Assembly: GCA_964430885.1 (NCBI GenBank)
Contig: CAYSHM010000031.1
Location: 1-28,514, forward strand
Reading direction: 5' to 3'
DNA length: 28,514 nucleotides
Origin: an uncultured archaeon
GTDB lineage: Archaea > Thermoplasmatota > Penumbrarchaeia > JASLWR01
Position numbers and translations under genes: made by a program. Within the stretch, counting starts at the first letter, position 1; every line of letters begins with the position of its first letter. The notes below the pieces were generated by a model. That model did not search any database. It saw nothing but the letters and a program-made list of their open reading frames with translations, and was not told the origin of the DNA. Shown here piece by piece: positions 10,799-17,600 of the stretch.

Positions 10799-13543
10799 AT
10801 GAAAAGCAATGCGGTTATAAAAATTACCGGCGCGTTTATACTTATATTGATTGTGTCCTTCGGGATATTAAACGGTCTATCGGAATTAGGGGCTGATGCC
10901 CAAACAGCAGATAGTAAATCGCCATATTATGGTGCTTCATGCAATCTCAAAATAGTATCCTTCGAGGATGAGGACGGAGTTGTATATGAGAATACATTGG
11001 AAGAGAACGAAACCCCTGAGGACTGGCAGAAGGACAATGGGATCTCCACCTCTATAACCAATCTTGCAAAGTCGGTCATATTTTGGATTCAGGTCAGTTC
11101 CGAAGTGACCGATAGGACCATCAGCACGAGCCCTGGCAGTTCTGGTAATCCCTACAACATTACAATTCCTGACGATTATGTACGGAGACAGAAATATTCA
11201 TTGGATATTGAAGTTGAGGACGGTGATGATTGGAATATAACTTTCAGTGTGACAAATGATGTGCGGCTTTCAGATGATGATATCTCTCTGTATCTGACCG
11301 ATGACGGTTTTAAAAGAGCCAATGAGATGGATCGACTTTCTTTTTGGCTTGCACCCGGGGAATATGCGAATATCAAGGTGGAGGTCAAGGGCCTATCAAG
11401 TCTTTCTCCAGGTGATGAGGTAACAATAACAGTTGTACCAAGCGAAGATACCCCTGGCTGTCATACTCCTACACACATGACCGTAAAGGTAGAAAGCGAT
11501 GACGATTTTTCTGTTATTCATATACTGGGGATCATTGCAGCCTTCATTGGCCTGATATTTGCTTATATATTGTATTTAAACATTTCAAAATCGGACGAAG
11601 GTAATGATAAGGTCAAGGAAATATCAAAAAGCATTAATGAAGGCGCAATGGCCTTCCTGAACAAGGAATACAGGATCTTGGTTATATTCTCATTTGTGGT
11701 AGTGGTAGTTCTTCTCGTTGCTGCGTATATAGCGGAATCAATGACCTATTGGACCCCTGTAACATTTGTTGTAGGGGCTCTGTTCTCTGCAATAGCGGGA
11801 AACATTGGTATGCGAATTGCCACATCTTCCAACGGTAGAACTGCAACAGCTGTTGAGAAGGATCTTAAGAAAGGATTGCAGATCGCCTTTTCCAGCGGAG
11901 CGGTCATGGGCCTTTCAGTTGTTAGCTTAGGCCTATTGGGTGTGTCTGGATTTTATTTCATATTCAAAGATCCAAACATTCTTTTCGGTTTCGGTTTCGG
12001 AGCTTCATCAATAGCCCTTTTCGCTAGGGTAGGCGGGGGGATATATACCAAGAGCGCTGATGTGGGAGCCGATCTTGTTGGAAAGGTGGAGAAGGGCATC
12101 CCGGAGGATGACCCCCGGAATCCCGCGGTGATAGCTGACAATGTGGGTGACAATGTGGGAGATGTAGCAGGGATGGGAGCAGATCTATTTGAATCCTATG
12201 TTGATTCCATTATAGCCGCCATGATACTTGGAGTTGTAGGTGTTGGAACCCTGAATGCGTCCAAAGATCTCGGCGGCTTCATGGGCAAAGCAGTTCTTCT
12301 TCCATTGATAATTGCAGGACTGGGAATTATTTCTGCTATAATAGGAATATTTGTGATCAATAACAGCAAAGAGGTTAAGTCTTTACATGGCTTACTGAAC
12401 AAGGGCCTATTGACCGCAGCCTTGTTTCAGGGTATTACATCCTTAGCTGTTGTGGTTTTCTGGCTGGGAATGGATTACTTTGAGATCTGGGGTGCTATGG
12501 TTGCAGGTCTTGTAAGCGGTTTGGTTATAGGGTATATCACCGAATATTATACCTCGGATGAGTTCAAACCTACAAAAGGAATAGCTGAATCTTCAAAATC
12601 AGGTGCAGCCCCTAATATTATCGAGGGATTGTCCGTAGGTATGATCAGTACTATTGTCCCTGTAGTAATGGTATGTATTACATTGATATTCTCTTTCTGG
12701 ATGGCAGGTCTTTACGGCATAGCGATTTCTGCAGTTGGAATGCTTTCTACTTTAGGTATAACTCTAGCAACCGACTCTTACGGACCAGTAGCGGATAATG
12801 CTGCAGGAATTGCCGAGATGGCAGGAATGGGGAAAAAGGTAAGGGAGAGGGCAGAGAAACTGGATGCCGTCGGAAATACTACTGCCGCTATTGGAAAGGG
12901 TTTTGCCATAGGATCTGCAGCACTTACTGCATTGGCCCTGTTTTCCACATATACTCAAACAACTCAGCTTACTTTCGGAAGTTTATCCCTGATGGACCCA
13001 TATGTCATGGTAGGTGTTTTCATCGGTGTACTTTTGGTCTTTGTTTTTTCAGCTCTCACAATGGCAGCCGTTGGTAAAGCTGCAATGGAGATGGTGGAAG
13101 AGGTTAGACGTCAGTTCAAGGAGATTAAAGGATTAATGCAGGGCAAGCAGAAACCCGAGTACAAGAAGTGTGTAATGATTGCTACCGGCGGTGCTTTGAG
13201 ACAGATGATACTGCCCTCGGTTCTGGCAGTTGCTACACCTGTTGTAGTGGGCCTAGTCCTGGGACCTGAAGCCCTAGGCGGCCTTTTAGGCGGAGCATTG
13301 GTGGCAGGTTTCCTAATGGCAATTATGATGGCCAATTCAGGCGGAGCCTGGGATAATGCAAAGAAATATATTGAAGCCGGGAATCTAGGCGGCAAGGGTT
13401 CAGAAGCCCATAAGGCAGCCGTTGTGGGTGACACAGTAGGAGATCCGTTCAAGGATACTTCAGGTCCCTCTTTGAATATCCTGATAAAGTTGATGTCTAT
13501 TGTATCGTTGGTATTTGCCCCCCTCTTCCTGATACTGCATTAG
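10799..13543 (+). CDS. hppA: K+-dependent, probably Na+-translocating membrane pyrophosphatase with a 236-aa N-terminal extension
   Basis: [68 protein letters not shown] (Ala marks K+ dependence), [33 protein letters not shown] has Glu at the TM6 position typical of Na+-PPases. Confidence 0.95.
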
Positions 13544-13625: not shown

Positions 13626-14393
13626 ATGAGAGGTTACAAATACACTGTATCTCATAGAGATATCATGGAGGAGAACCTGCGTTTTTATACCCTAATATCA
13701 AAGAAGAAGGGAAGCAAAACCATCTCTTTGGATTTTTCCAGAAAGATGCTTGTCATCGGTAACGATGATAGATCATCAAAGAAAAATGGAATTCAAATAC
13801 CAACGCAGTCCATTAAAGATATCTATATTCACAAAGGCAAATCCCTTCCCTTGGGTGTTTTTCATATGGGGGTTTTTCTGGTTCTTCTAGTGGGCACGTC
13901 TCTCTCGCTGGTGGATGTGATATCTGTTCTCGCGTTATTGAAAAAATGGTTGTTCGTTATATTGATCCCTTGTTCAGTTATTGGTTTGACATTAGTGATA
14001 TCATATTTTCTGATAAGAAAGAAGAGCTTGGTTATTGATATCAATGGACGTGATAATATAGAACTGATTGGGGATGTGGCTCAAATGAAGAAGTTACGTT
14101 TTGACATTAATGTTCTAGAAAAGGGCCGGTTATTAGAAGAAAGAAAAATAAGATTTGAAGTGACACCCGTAATCGGCACTTCTACTAATAATGAGAAAGA
14201 GAAAATAAGGGGAATATCAGGAAGCAGAAAGTCAGCAGAAGAGGGCCCTGGTAAAGATGTATTAACTTGTCCTCACTGTGGCAGTTCGGATCTTTATTAC
14301 GAAGCAGGATTGACCACTGGCTATAAATATCACTGTGTGGATTGTGATTATATCGGCCCTTTTGTAATTAGTAAAAAACTAAAACAAATATGA
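13626..14393 (+). CDS. Hypothetical membrane protein with a 2-TM hairpin and a C-terminal zinc ribbon
   Basis: Two hydrophobic segments at about aa 75-128; C-terminal CPHC-x16-CVDC. Start could be the second Met. Confidence 0.75.
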   Translation: MRGYKYTVSHRDIMEENLRFYTLISKKKGSKTISLDFSRKMLVIGNDDRSSKKNGIQIPTQSIKDIYIHKGKSLPLGVFHMGVFLVLLVGTSLSLVDVISVLALLKKWLFVILIPCSVIGLTLVISYFLIRKKSLVIDINGRDNIELIGDVAQMKKLRFDINVLEKGRLLEERKIRFEVTPVIGTSTNNEKEKIRGISGSRKSAEEGPGKDVLTCPHCGSSDLYYEAGLTTGYKYHCVDCDYIGPFVISKKLKQI

Positions 14394-14471
14394 TTTCAAT
14401 AAAAACAAATCAGATATGACCTTTTTGTAAAGAATAATTGATGGAATGCAATAGAATTTTTCTATCAGCGT

Positions 14472-14487
14472 CAAAAGTTTTATTTAC
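14472..14487 (+). promoter_or_regulatory. BRE/TATA promoter for the intergenic sRNA
   Basis: CAAAAG followed by TTTTATTTAC, ending about 23 nt before the first hairpin at 14510. Confidence 0.6.
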
Positions 14488-14508
14488 AAAGCTTTGGAAT
14501 GAACTAAT

Positions 14509-14649
14509 GTCCTTGTCGAAGGCCTTTTTGATCTGCGGATATGATAAAAGGTGCAATACAAGGAATACACCAGGTCCAGTATAGGTCCCCTATTGACCAT
14601 GTCAAACTGACGGGTATGATATCAGGGTCAACCCCTGGACCGAACAATG
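14509..14649 (+). ncRNA. Two-hairpin archaeal box H/ACA pseudouridylation guide RNA (predicted)
   Basis: Hairpin 1: TCCTTGT/ACAAGGA stem, internal pocket, GCCTTTT/AAAAGGT stem, TGA...ATGAT K-loop, ACA at 14567-14569. Hairpin 2: GGTCCAG/CTGGACC stem, CTGA...ATGAT, ACA at 14644-14646. TATA upstream, T6 downstream. Confidence 0.8.
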
Positions 14650-14650
14650 A

Positions 14651-14656
14651 TTTTTT
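14651..14656 (+). terminator. Oligo-T terminator of the predicted sRNA
   Basis: TTTTTT 4 nt after the second ACA box. Confidence 0.5.
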
Positions 14657-14699
14657 CAAATTACGACTAATATTTCAAGTTTAATGAAACGAATAGATT

Positions 14700-17600
14700 C
14701 TATAACCCTTCCAATTCCTTTTCGATATCTTCAATAGAGGGCATCTCAATTCCATCCAGATCGATATCATCGTCTTCCTCTATCTCATCATCATCCACAG
14801 GTTCCCCTTCACTCTCCATTTCTTCTTCTGGGGCTGAGGTGTCATCCGTTCCGTCACCGAGTATGTCCGATACCATGCTGTCAAGATCTTCAATTCCAAT
14901 ATCCAGGTCTAGATTTGCTAGTTCGTCTTCATCTATATCGATATCTTCGATATCCTCTTCCTCCACTTCTTCTTCTTCTTCTTCCATCCCCATAGATGGT
15001 TCTTCATAGCCTTCATCTATCTCCTTTCCACCATCGTCTTCGGAATCGTCCGTATCGGCTGTATCGTCCTTGTCCACGACTTCTTCTTCATCAATTTCTT
15101 CCTCAACAACCGCAGCTTCCCCCACCTCGCTATCATCCTCATCTTCTTCTTCCTTCTCCTCTTTGTCAGTGTCCTCTTCAGCGTCTTCCTTATCGTCACC
15201 CTCTTCCATCTTTTCTTCTTCTTTATCCAATTCATCCTCTTCTTCCTCCTTCTTTCTGAAGAAAAGCCAGAACACGATAAAAGCAAGGATCAGCATGACG
15301 ATAATTAGAATTATCAGTGTAATCAGGACAAGATTATTGTTCTCGTTCTCTATTCTATCCGGATTGACTTCTTGATTACTCCAGAGAACATAGGGTCCTA
15401 ACACATTTTCTCCCTTTGAAACCCATATGGTTGATGTATTGCTTTCATATCCATCCATTGAAATTTCAAGAATGTAAACTCCCTCAGGTAGGTCATTAAA
15501 GGTATAGGTCTTTAGAACCTCGTCATATTCGGGATTATCAAACCTCGTCTTCTCGGTTTTGGGGTTCTTCAATACCACAATTACATCTTCCAGATAATTA
15601 TCGGCTGAATCCTTTACAGTGATTGAGAGCTTTCCGGTAATCGGGCTTTTTACCAAGCTGATATTGGTCCAATTAACGGATGCACCTTGGCTGATGTTAG
15701 ATCTGATTTCTTTAGTGTTATACCCGGCAGCCTTGAATCGGACCCTGTACTTACCAGCTTCCAGGGGGTAATAGAATGATCCTTTGTCATCGGTCTGCAC
15801 GGTCTTGAAATCCTCGAAAACAATGATTGTTGTTTCATTGAAATCTTCATACTGTGCATAGTTATCCTTCAATGTGGAGTTATTTCCAATATATACATAG
15901 GTCATATTTGTGATCATGATATTGGCATATGGAATTGGAGTTCCCGCTTCATCTGTAACATTACCGGCCAATACACCCCAAGTCGGAGGAGGCATATATT
16001 CGGCTAATATCGCATATACATAGACTGTTTCACCTATTTCCACCGTAACATCATCGGACCATTCCAGATAAGTGATCCCTTCAAAAGTGTTCCCGTATAC
16101 GGTCATCTTGTATTTGCCTGGAGGCACATTTTCAAAATATTCCTTTCCATTGCTGCCAGTATAACCAGTGGGTAAATTTCCCACATCGATGAAGAATCCT
16201 TTTAGAGGATCATCAGTAGCATTCTTGACCTGGAAAACAATCCGTCCTGTTGTTATAGGTTTCCCCATGGTGGTGAACTCAAAGGAAATATTGGAAATCC
16301 TGTTGCCTGCCAGGTCAGTGAGATCATAATCTATAATTACCTGATACTCCTCGTTATACTCCAGACCATTTATGAAAAGCAGATAGAGAATTGACCTTCT
16401 CTGGCTTATATTGTTTTCAATCAGGAAGTCAAAGGAAATGCGGTTCTCGTTTGAATCGATGATGGATATTCCTGATTCAATGGTACCGTTGTTGATGATC
16501 TCGGAGAATATTACGGTGTAGTTGATGTCTATATCCATATCTAGTTCACGGTCATCGGGATAGGTTTCTAATATTGTGGGCTTGATATTATCCAAAACTA
16601 TAAGCGGGGCAAATTGGCCGGTTGGATTCGGATCTGAAATATTTATTCCAACCATTCCATTCCCCCGGTCCAGTAGAGTTTCAGTTATTTGACCCCAATA
16701 ATTGTTGTTTATGCCTCTGAAATAAATAACAAGATCGTCGTCATACGTTCCAGGCGGGAAGAAGCCGGGATCAAATTCAAACCAAACTTCTGTCCAAATG
16801 GCCCTGCCTTCACCTGTTAAATTCAACTGCAGCATTATTTCAATAAAGACCATCCCGTCTGATATGTTTTCCCAAGCTCTGGTATTCTCAGTATCAACAT
16901 CCAGTGTGAATTGACCTGAACCTCCAAACAGGCTCCTGATATGAACTGGTCCATGATCAATTACCTGAATTGTGGGCAGGTATACGTTCAAATCGAAATA
17001 TGCGGATGTTGTGGTATAGGGATCCGATACATTGAGATAGATCCGGTGATTACCAATTGAAAGCTGTGCGGTGTCCAGCATAATGACATTCGTGTTCATA
17101 TCCAATGTTTGATCGAGCTGGATGGGGCCTGAAAGATTTGAAACGAACTCGAACTCAAGTAACTGGTAACTTTCTTCGGGATCTATAAAGTCAACATCAA
17201 TGTATATTTCATCCTGCCAAATTACAAATGATGGGTAGTTGTTGATTGATACCGCTGGGGGATGGTTGTCCAATTCCATGTAGAAATCCACTCTTCGGTT
17301 TTCATTGGCTACAAGTATGATATTTTTATAAGTAGATTTGAATCGCGCCTTGGAAACTGATATGTTCACCCTCCCACCGGATATCACTGGGAAATTGAAG
17401 AACCCGCCGGGATTGGTTTGAGTATTGACCTGAGCGCCGCTATTGAATCTTATATCAAGAGATGCATTTGATATTGCAGTCCCGTCCAAATCTGAGTAAA
17501 CATAACCGAAAACGGCAGGAAGTGCATCCAGGTTTAATCCATACACGGTCATGGTTATATTGTTGCTTGACATGTCCATATCCATATATAGGGGCACATC

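Follow-up and report, generated by a model that had tools for sequence, protein, structure and literature searches.

Does the gap at 14394-14699 of this archaeal contig encode a guide RNA for rRNA modification, and if so, which uridine would it address? The window, i.e. the whole stretch of 28,514 nt that was analysed (contig CAYSHM010000031.1, assembly GCA_964430885.1), derives from an uncultured member of the Thermoplasmatota. A preliminary description had read 14573-14649 as the second hairpin of an H/ACA sRNA, aimed at the equivalent of U2586 in E. coli 23S rRNA, and had suggested that alternative folds of its upper region might provide more than one pocket. Our analysis indicates that 14573-14646 on the + strand is probably the second and last hairpin of a two-hairpin H/ACA sRNA that guides pseudouridylation of U2620 in the organism's own 23S rRNA. 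In Thermoplasmatota, the sRNA appears to correspond to hairpins 1 and 2 of HgcG/Pab40/Pf7/Afu4.

Genomic context

The host genome comprises 3.13 Mb in 44 contigs and is 91.6% complete. The 306-nt gap between convergent ORFs contains a box H/ACA sRNA of two hairpins (approximately 14510-14656, + strand; Table 1). It is preceded by a 255-aa ORF on the + strand that ends at 14393 and lacks a Pfam family, and is followed by a 2499-aa ORF on the - strand that has its stop at 14700 and carries FG-GAP and CarboxypepD_reg domains. The promoter-proximal part of RF00064 aligns at the TATA-like run, which is a possible archaeal promoter of the sRNA, and the T6 run behind hairpin 2 is a likely archaeal transcription stop. 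RNA contigs of two metatranscriptome runs, with which 5-6% of sampled words are shared, map at 14721-14951 only, within the 3' end of the large ORF; the sRNA is uncovered in these single contigs, and contigs from standard libraries cannot show the absence of a small RNA.

Table 1. Elements of the predicted two-hairpin sRNA and its flanks (window coordinates)
Feature	Position	Strand	Basis and remarks
TATA-like A/T run TTTTATTTA	14478..14486	+	Sequence; ends 24 nt before hairpin 1
Hairpin 1	14510..14569	+	P1 14510-16/14558-64; P2 14522-29/14545-52; aligned to RF00064 hairpin 1
Hairpin 1, guides and motifs	5' guide CGAAG 14517-21; 3' guide GCAAU 14553-57; GA 14530-31 and 14543-44; ACA 14567-69		
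Hairpin 2, P1 lower stem, 5' strand GGUCCAG	14573..14579	+	Perfect 7 bp with 14635-41
Hairpin 2, pocket 5' strand: linker UAUA, then 5' guide GGUC (14584-87)	14580..14587	+	Complementary to target GACC
Hairpin 2, P2 upper stem, 5' strand CCCUAUU	14588..14594	+	Pairs with 14620-27; covariation
Hairpin 2, K-turn GA, non-bulged strand, inside UUGA	14595..14596	+	GA in 40/45 homologues, fixed position
Hairpin 2, C-stem CC 14597-98/GG 14613-14 and small variable hairpin cap	14597..14614	+	Covariation
Hairpin 2, K-turn bulged strand: 3-nt bulge UAU 14615-17 and GA 14618-19	14615..14619	+	UGA invariance
Hairpin 2, P2 3' strand UAUCAGGG	14620..14627	+	Covariation; C14623 bulged, U14620 opposite U14594
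Hairpin 2, linker UC between P2 and 3' guide	14628..14629	+	NC in 45/45; C14629 invariant
Hairpin 2, 3' guide AACCC	14630..14634	+	First base 14 nt before ACA; AACCC in 39/45 homologues
Hairpin 2, P1 3' strand CUGGACC	14635..14641	+	Pairs with 14573-79; covariation
Hairpin 2, ACA box after 2-nt spacer GA	14644..14646	+	ANA 45/45, ACA 38/45, 2-nt spacer 41/45
T6 run	14651..14656	+	Sequence; directly 3' of the hairpin 2 ACA region, no third hairpin

Architecture of hairpin 2

All elements on which the preliminary description was built (GGTCCAG 14573-79/CTGGACC 14635-41, AACCC, GGTC 14584-87, CTGA 14607-10 and ATGAT 14616-20) were recovered at their positions. As expected of an archaeal H/ACA motif, the lower stem (7-bp P1) adjoins an ANA box (2-nt spacer, ACA 14644-46) and the target uridine is placed 14 nt from ACA, within the usual 14-15 nt. 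The upper stem P2 has 6 bp and one bulged C (C14623), with the pairs C88-G27, C89-G26, C90-G25, U91-A24, A92-U22 and U93-A21 (last two digits of 145xx/146xx). Above it, the two GA and the 3-nt bulge UAU of a K-turn can be recognized by sequence. Comparison of homologues assigns the K-turn to UUGA 14593-96 with AUGAUA 14616-21, the sheared pairs being G14595.A14619 and A14596.G14618. We take the AUGAUA strand to be C-box-like and the UUGA strand to be D-box-like, with the A-U pair 14621/14593 in place of the usual G-C. No aligned homologue deviates from UGA 14617-19 or from GG 14584-85 of the 5' guide, and A14596 is nearly invariant.

This assignment departs from the preliminary description in the choice of K-turn partner. 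CTGA 14607-10, which had been matched with ATGAT, falls inside the variable apical part, in the cap hairpin GUCA 14601-04/UGAC 14608-11, and the conserved partner is GA 14595-96, found in 40 of 45 homologues at a fixed distance of 7 nt from GGGYC. The apical part varies in length and sequence among homologues; the 2-bp C-stem is formed in 29 of the 37 that have a long apical part, and the remaining eight of the 45 homologues have a short K-loop instead. Nor is the upper region atypical, as had been proposed. The functional rules of Muller et al. 2008 name an H2 of 6 bp, a distance of 14-15 nt to ACA, and a decisive 3' guide (PMC2377435), and the comparative structure is canonical because its 6-bp H2 and its 14 nt to ACA satisfy them. 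It differs from the textbook pocket, which has no nucleotides between P2 and the 3' guide, by UC 14628-29 at this place.

Homologues and covariation

Rfam at the gathering threshold gave no match in the window. When the gap was searched in the E-value mode of cmscan, RF00064 aligned at 14456-14677 with 32.8 bits (E 1.2e-7; cut-off 77 bits), covering hairpins 1 and 2 and the strings GGUCCC and AACCC, and skipping the third hairpin of the model. Because the score is below the 77-bit gathering cut-off and the third of three consecutive hairpins is absent, we name the locus a two-hairpin homologue and not an RF00064 member by the Rfam criterion. RF00064 has matches in 53 of 151 genomes of the phylum, one of which reaches the cut-off. 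Whole-genome RF00064 runs on the host genome and on the phylum did not recover the present locus, an omission that we attribute to the prefilter, this copy being AT-rich and limited to two hairpins.

We retrieved 51 homologous loci, of which 49 had a hairpin 2 that could be parsed (L040 and L041 did not), and 45 distinct sequences were used after exclusion of L054 (poor parse) and three duplicates. They share a common plan: a 7-bp P1, a linker of 1-6 nt, GGGYC (AGGUC here), a P2a that is always 7 nt long, GA (40/45), the variable apical part, a 3-nt bulge ending in U, and an invariant GA after this U. In 32 of the 45, the 3' strand of P2 is 8 nt long and has one bulge; in the other 13 it is 7 nt long. 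A covariance model of motif 2 (R1), built from 13 sequences of equal linker length (alignment A3), finds one match in each of the 51 sources; its single match in the host genome is so by construction, since this locus sits in the R1 seed. Across the phylum, R1 matches 89 of the 151 genomes; it does so in all 26 members of the same class (this genome counted) and in none of nine in family f16. The hairpin does not travel with its neighbourhood. An H+-pyrophosphatase is encoded nearby, for which 12 related loci were retrieved from Thermoplasmatota or Thermoplasmatales MAG records, and R1 found no hairpin in the flanks of the pyrophosphatase homologue in the 10 other genomes searched. A narrow literature search found no report of H/ACA guides in Thermoplasmatota; in the available part of PMC3608112, Thermoplasma is mentioned for rRNA gene organisation only.

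The paired regions covary. For five P2 and two C-stem pairs in the MAFFT alignment A2, 83.3% of cells are paired vs 61.4% in shuffles, and 66 cells have double changes vs 22.4 when shuffled, a value reached in 0 of 500 shuffles; slid partners give at most 49.7%. The corresponding figures for alignment A4, which leans towards R1 because it was fitted to it, are 92.2% vs 68.8%, with slid controls at most 46.6% and both-side changes in 14 of 15 pairs (176 such cells). In A4, P1 is 98.2% paired over 48 distinct homologues, with both-side changes at all seven pairs. Independently of the model, P1 is perfect (7/7) in 41 of 45 homologues with 26 different 3' strands, and has 6.91 pairs on average vs 5.33 when given the 3' strand of another homologue with the same freedom. 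The MAFFT alignments A1 and A2 mis-align the 5' strand of P1, which is why RNAalifold saw only part of P2 and an invariant GGG/CCC pairing; the covariance model R1 was used instead. Taken with the RF00064 match and the architecture shared by 49 of 51 loci, covariation bears out the earlier call of an H/ACA hairpin, and judged from comparative sequence this is a real, conserved, and canonical one.

Folding energy alone is weak evidence and would not carry the sRNA call. Hairpin 2 has a z-score of -2.44 (3 of 200 shuffles as good), and hairpins 1 and 2 together have one of -1.35 (17 of 200). Without constraints, the naked RNA folds into a structure that is 6.6 kcal/mol more stable than the functional open-pocket fold, mainly owing to possible pairing between GGG of one guide strand and CCC of the other. 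The same gap occurs in all 45 homologues (range 3.6-12.9, median 6.9 kcal/mol), and this copy is therefore typical of the family. The K-turn string GACC copies the 3' half of the target in 23 of 45 homologues. Conceivably, though this is doubtful, self-pairing of this string and of the GGG/CCC guides holds the naked RNA shut before it is remodelled by L7Ae.

Predicted rRNA target

Targets were sought in the organism's own 23S rRNA (contig C2, 148981-151901), 16S rRNA (C2, 232771-234239), and 38 tRNAs. The best fit for the pocket UAUAGGUC/AACCC is 23S U2620, where nine Watson-Crick pairs (5+4) flank an unpaired U2620-A2621, and bipartite complementarity around an unpaired UN of the kind expected for H/ACA guides is thus present at this site; the GACC that is paired by GGUC is located just 3' of the unpaired UA. 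The runner-up, 23S U1531, has three pairs on the 3' guide and two G.U. Both guide strands, GGUC and AACCC, had been correctly identified in the preliminary description, and the target that it named, the third U of GGGUUUAG, ranks first in the set scanned. The sequence GGGUUUAGACC occurs once in the 23S rRNA (chance expectation ~0.04 in the 5.9-kb locus; at least one occurrence in 9 of 200 shuffles), is identical in the 23S rRNA of four relatives, and aligns without indels to the E. coli stretch GGGUUUAGAAC.

We adopt the label E. coli 2586 from the available text of PMC2584109; in the disrupted E. coli 23S copy used here, the third U is nt 2587 of the annotated feature. In the same portion of that paper, H. 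marismortui Psi2621 corresponds to E. coli 2586 and m3U2619 to E. coli 2584, and for H. volcanii the accessible part of PMC7075261 gives m3U at 2603 and Psi at 2605. Because m3U and Psi are placed at the equivalents of 2584/2586 and 2603/2605, the third U is the one modified to Psi in haloarchaea, and it is also the base left unpaired in the pocket of hairpin 2.

All five Watson-Crick pairs of AACCC with GGGUU are kept in 39 of 48 distinct rows, and in two rows with AGUCG both changes are transitions that keep wobble pairing, giving four pairs via two wobbles. This variation agrees with selection for pairing to GGGUU. Twelve of the 45 homologues have GGGCC as their 5' guide, which leaves a C.A mismatch with GACC of the unchanged rRNA; in these lineages a register shift by one would let two upstream bases (AC or AU) pair instead. 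The shifted register is unworkable for the present copy (AGGUC), and the plain register fits with four pairs.

The guide-target duplex is short, 9 bp in all, and only 4 of these are on the 5' guide.

How safe is the step from pairing to modification? One reading, which we consider unlikely, is that the hairpin is a genuine and conserved H/ACA hairpin that does not modify U2620 here, being inactive or having a chaperone-like role in the folding of 23S rRNA. There is a precedent in P. abyssi, where the equivalent uridine U2678 is unmodified despite a homologous hairpin, motif 2 of Pab40 (PMC2377435), and such a reading would also accommodate a duplex of just 9 bp with a 2-nt unpaired linker and a 5' guide that is mismatched in a fraction of the homologues. 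[quoted passage not shown] The 5' guide is reported to be less important than the 3' guide (PMC2377435), and it is the latter that has five conserved Watson-Crick pairs here. Furthermore, the H. volcanii homologue is active, according to the part of PMC7075261 available.

Alternative folds

The competing pairings pointed out in the preliminary description exist: ATAGG 14581-85/CCTAT 14589-93, TTGAC 14593-97/GTCAA 14601-05, TTGACC 14593-98/GGTCAA 14626-31, and CCCT 14588-91/AGGG 14624-27, the last of which is the base of P2. An H/ACA guide that reaches another or an additional uridine through an alternative fold of the upper region would not be without parallel, since up to three sites can be served by an archaeal H/ACA motif, and motif 2 of Pab40 adopts another fold in which its 5' strand carries an additional stem-loop (both from the available part of PMC2377435). 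In this copy, ATAGG/CCTAT and TTGACC/GGTCAA can form, and U1531 offers a second-best site. Yet these helices are complete in just 2 of 45 and 1 of 45 homologues, respectively, the latter being this copy only. The ACA spacing would be wrong: TTGACC/GGTCAA would leave a 3-nt 3' guide at 12 nt from ACA, outside the functional 14-15, and U1531 forms only three pairs with the 3' guide. Scans with other pocket definitions yielded, at best, sites of 8-10 pairs with many G.U among them. We therefore regard more than one pocket as improbable and do not follow the preliminary description in this respect. That there is no sRNA at all, and that the structure is a terminator or 3'-UTR element between convergent genes, a small ORF (overlapping short ORFs of 47-51 aa occur), or a chance hairpin, would suit the position between convergent ORFs with a T-run after it and the modest folding z-scores, but is very improbable in view of conservation with compensatory changes in 89 of 151 genomes, independence from this neighbourhood as judged from the retrieved pyrophosphatase flanks of 10 other genomes, the match to the independent Rfam model RF00064, and the combination of exact ACA spacing, K-turn, and unique rRNA complement.

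Hairpin 1 and the helix-69 hairpin

The predicted guide for U2620 is accompanied by a hairpin 1 of 10/5/9 layout, whose best target is U2530 of the own 23S rRNA with 4+5 Watson-Crick pairs. U2530 is found 90 nt before U2620 and aligns to the column of E. coli 2496. The validated target of Pab40 motif 1 is P. abyssi 2588 (PMC2377435 Table 1), and the spacing 2530 to 2620 equals that of P. abyssi 2588 to 2678 (90 nt). The earlier suggestion that both hairpins aim at the peptidyl-transferase region is thus supported, the site of hairpin 1 being in the same 23S domain.

The third hairpin serves as the helix-69 guide in Pyrococcus and haloarchaea. Of the 49 parsed homologues, 37 possess it, among them both genomes identified from the same family, and 12, this one included, lack it. 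A search with a sequence-only model of hairpin 3 (R2) gave nothing in the host genome, which is 91.6% complete, at E up to 10; in controls, R2 found hairpin 3 in five of five genomes, three of them outside its building set. A regular-expression search for hairpin 3 returned 14 chance-like matches and was replaced by R2. It is conceivable, though doubtful, that the lineage dropped the helix-69 guide hairpin that normally comes after hairpin 2. If so, the organism would either be without the nearly universal pseudouridines of helix 69 (E. coli 1915/1917) or use an unrecognised route to them, and would nonetheless have kept two guides aimed at the peptidyl-transferase region.

Protein partners

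Genes for three of the proteins of archaeal H/ACA particles were found above cut-off: Cbf5 (420 bits vs 242), L7Ae (146.8 bits vs 134.6), and Nop10 (71.2 bits vs 68). Gar1 had no Pfam match in this genome (91.6% complete) or in three others of its family, and its Pfam cut-off is passed in only 5 of 26 relatives. A weak candidate is a 76-aa ORF (phmmer E 6.4e-5; 13.3 bits in Pfam, below the 29.3-bit cut-off).

Discussion

Most likely, hairpin 2 directs pseudouridine formation at the E. coli 2586 position, a role that experiments have established for its counterpart in H. volcanii. By analogy with the family, L7Ae would bind the K-turn formed by UUGA and AUGAUA, and Cbf5-Nop10(-Gar1) would bind the lower stem and the ACA box. 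The 23S rRNA would then pair with both strands of the pocket, GGGUU with AACCC 14630-34 and GACC with GGUC 14584-87, so that U2620 and the next A would be left unpaired at 14 nt from ACA, and Cbf5 would convert U2620 to pseudouridine. We infer transcription, RNP assembly, and modification of U2620 from this analogy.

Several features of the locus are shared with motif 2 of the HgcG/Pab40/Pf7/Afu4 family (RF00064). Hairpins 1 and 2 come in the same order, the pocket strings GGUCCC and AACCC align, the K-turn and the ACA spacing agree, and hairpin 1 aims at the position validated for motif 1 of Pab40. For motif 2 of Afu4 and Pf7, the predicted target is the equivalent of P. abyssi U2678, a pseudouridine in haloarchaea (PMC2377435). 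In P. abyssi itself, motif 2 has the K-turn mutation and a different validated target, U1932 (PMC2377435), whereas the present copy resembles the unmutated Pf7/Afu4 type. Unlike the RF00064 family, it has no third (helix-69) hairpin, the T-run following directly after hairpin 2, and it is AT-rich (51% GC for this hairpin) and scores below the Rfam cut-off.

The closest functional parallel comes from haloarchaea. HP1 is a homologue of Pf7 stem II and a guide for Psi2621 (E. coli 2586), as set out in the available text of PMC2584109, and stem-loop SL1 of H. volcanii sR-h45 makes Psi2605 in vivo and in vitro, as reported in the accessible part of PMC7075261. Going by the statements in these portions of the papers, SL1 (HP1/Hvo1) is homologous to hairpin 2 and has the same target uridine (E. 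coli 2586), an unpaired UN at the target, a spacing of ~15 nt to the ANA box, and, in the upper stem, additional 3'-side bases between pocket and G.A pairs. The upper stem of H. volcanii is described there as having 8 and 10 bases with two single-base bulges (Majumder et al., PMC7075261), and the bulged C14623 and unpaired UC 14628-29 of the present hairpin resemble this arrangement. The organization of the sRNA differs: haloarchaea, according to the available part of PMC2584109, have this hairpin in the 5' position, with a long spacer and then the helix-69 hairpin behind it, and lack hairpin 1 of Pf7, whereas the present sRNA has hairpin 1 but no helix-69 hairpin. H. volcanii Hvo1 has been described as a 10/5/9 fold (PMC4652768). 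Hairpin 2 shares with this class (Toffano-Nioche et al. 2015) the 9 nt from pocket to ACA (7-bp stem plus 2) and a 5-nt 3' guide and, if C14623 and U14628 are bulged, the ~10 layers from the pocket to the distal G.A pair (PMC4652768). As the class is defined in the text, a difference is that the closing layer of the upper stem would be a conserved C/C juxtaposition (14587/14629) and no base pair.

In conclusion, the locus is an ordinary member of a well-known archaeal guide family and opens no new pseudouridylation question. Its annotation adds an sRNA gene that was missed by the Rfam cut-off and by the whole-genome Rfam run, which is of modest practical value. The homologues provide a clean comparative structure for a hairpin whose fold in Pyrococcus was called ambiguous. 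The analysis extends HgcG/Pab40-type guides to uncultured marine Thermoplasmatota, and with matches in 89 of 151 genomes, a predicted guide for the position adjacent to the P-site, E. coli 2586, appears to be widespread in the phylum.

Pairing in the hairpin 2 pocket

Two facing bases at the hairpin 2 pocket of the H/ACA sRNA vary little among the 45 Thermoplasmatota homologues. C14629, in the linker that joins the upper stem to the 3´ guide, is invariant (45/45), and the C that it faces, C14587, is nearly so. The kink turn and C-stem supply a GACC (GA from the former, CC from the latter) that matches the 3´ half of the target in all four bases, as it likewise does in 23 of the 45 homologues; when the fold is left unconstrained, the 5´ guide GGUC pairs with this internal GACC.

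Both guide strands occur in variant forms. In two loci of one family (L019 and L022, f20), the 3´ guide AACCC is replaced by AGUCG, both changes being transitions and wobble pairing with GGGUU being retained. The 5´ guide reads GGGCC rather than GGGUC in 12/45 homologues (families f10, f20, f19 and f6), and GACC is unchanged in their 23S rRNA. Pairing with GACC is restored here only by a one-position shift in register together with the joining of an upstream AC or AU. An unpaired C adjoining the upper stem has also been described in SL1, the Haloferax volcanii hairpin that guides Psi2605.

Hairpin organization of the sRNA

Hairpin 1 fits U2530 of the organism's own 23S rRNA with 4+5 Watson-Crick pairs. 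In alignment, this uridine corresponds to E. coli C2496 and to P. abyssi Psi2588, the second of these being the validated target of Pab40 motif 1. Hairpin 3, the helix-69 guide, is missing downstream of hairpin 2, and none was found in the whole genome (G000, 91.6% complete) searched with R2, a model of this hairpin that recovered it in 5/5 control genomes. The two-hairpin form, devoid of hairpin 3, is seen in 12 of the 49 parsed homologues. In G001, a relative from the same family, the unit formed by hairpins 2 and 3 occurs twice, on separate contigs.

Locations of the features discussed
Feature	Location	Strand	Remark
H+-pyrophosphatase ORF	window 10799-13543		914 aa
Hairpin 1	window 14510-14569	+
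Kink turn/C-stem GACC	window 14595-14598	+
Region lacking hairpin 3	window 14647-14699
Metatranscriptome coverage	window 14721-14951		two runs
23S rRNA gene	G000:C2:148981-151901
16S rRNA gene	G000:C2:232771-234239
Putative divergent Gar1	G000:C11	minus	76-aa ORF
Hairpin 2 + 3 unit, copy 1	G001 C95:19803-19938
Hairpin 2 + 3 unit, copy 2	G001 C30:1972-2085

Genomic setting and protein partners

The 3´ end of a 2499-aa FG-GAP/CarboxypepD_reg ORF is represented in metatranscriptome contigs from two runs, whose sequence there matches the window exactly. In the H+-pyrophosphatase ORF the Pfam match begins at residue 250, which points either to a long N-terminal extension or to a start codon placed too far upstream.

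The Pfam Gar1 model reaches its own cut-off in only 5/26 genomes of this class. One short ORF possibly encodes a divergent Gar1, judging by its similarity to the Gar1 of a relative (phmmer E 6.4e-5); against the Pfam model it scores 13.3 bits, under the cut-off.

About 81 kb separates the 23S from the 16S rRNA gene on their shared contig; the two are thus unlinked, as is reported for Thermoplasma (PMC3608112).
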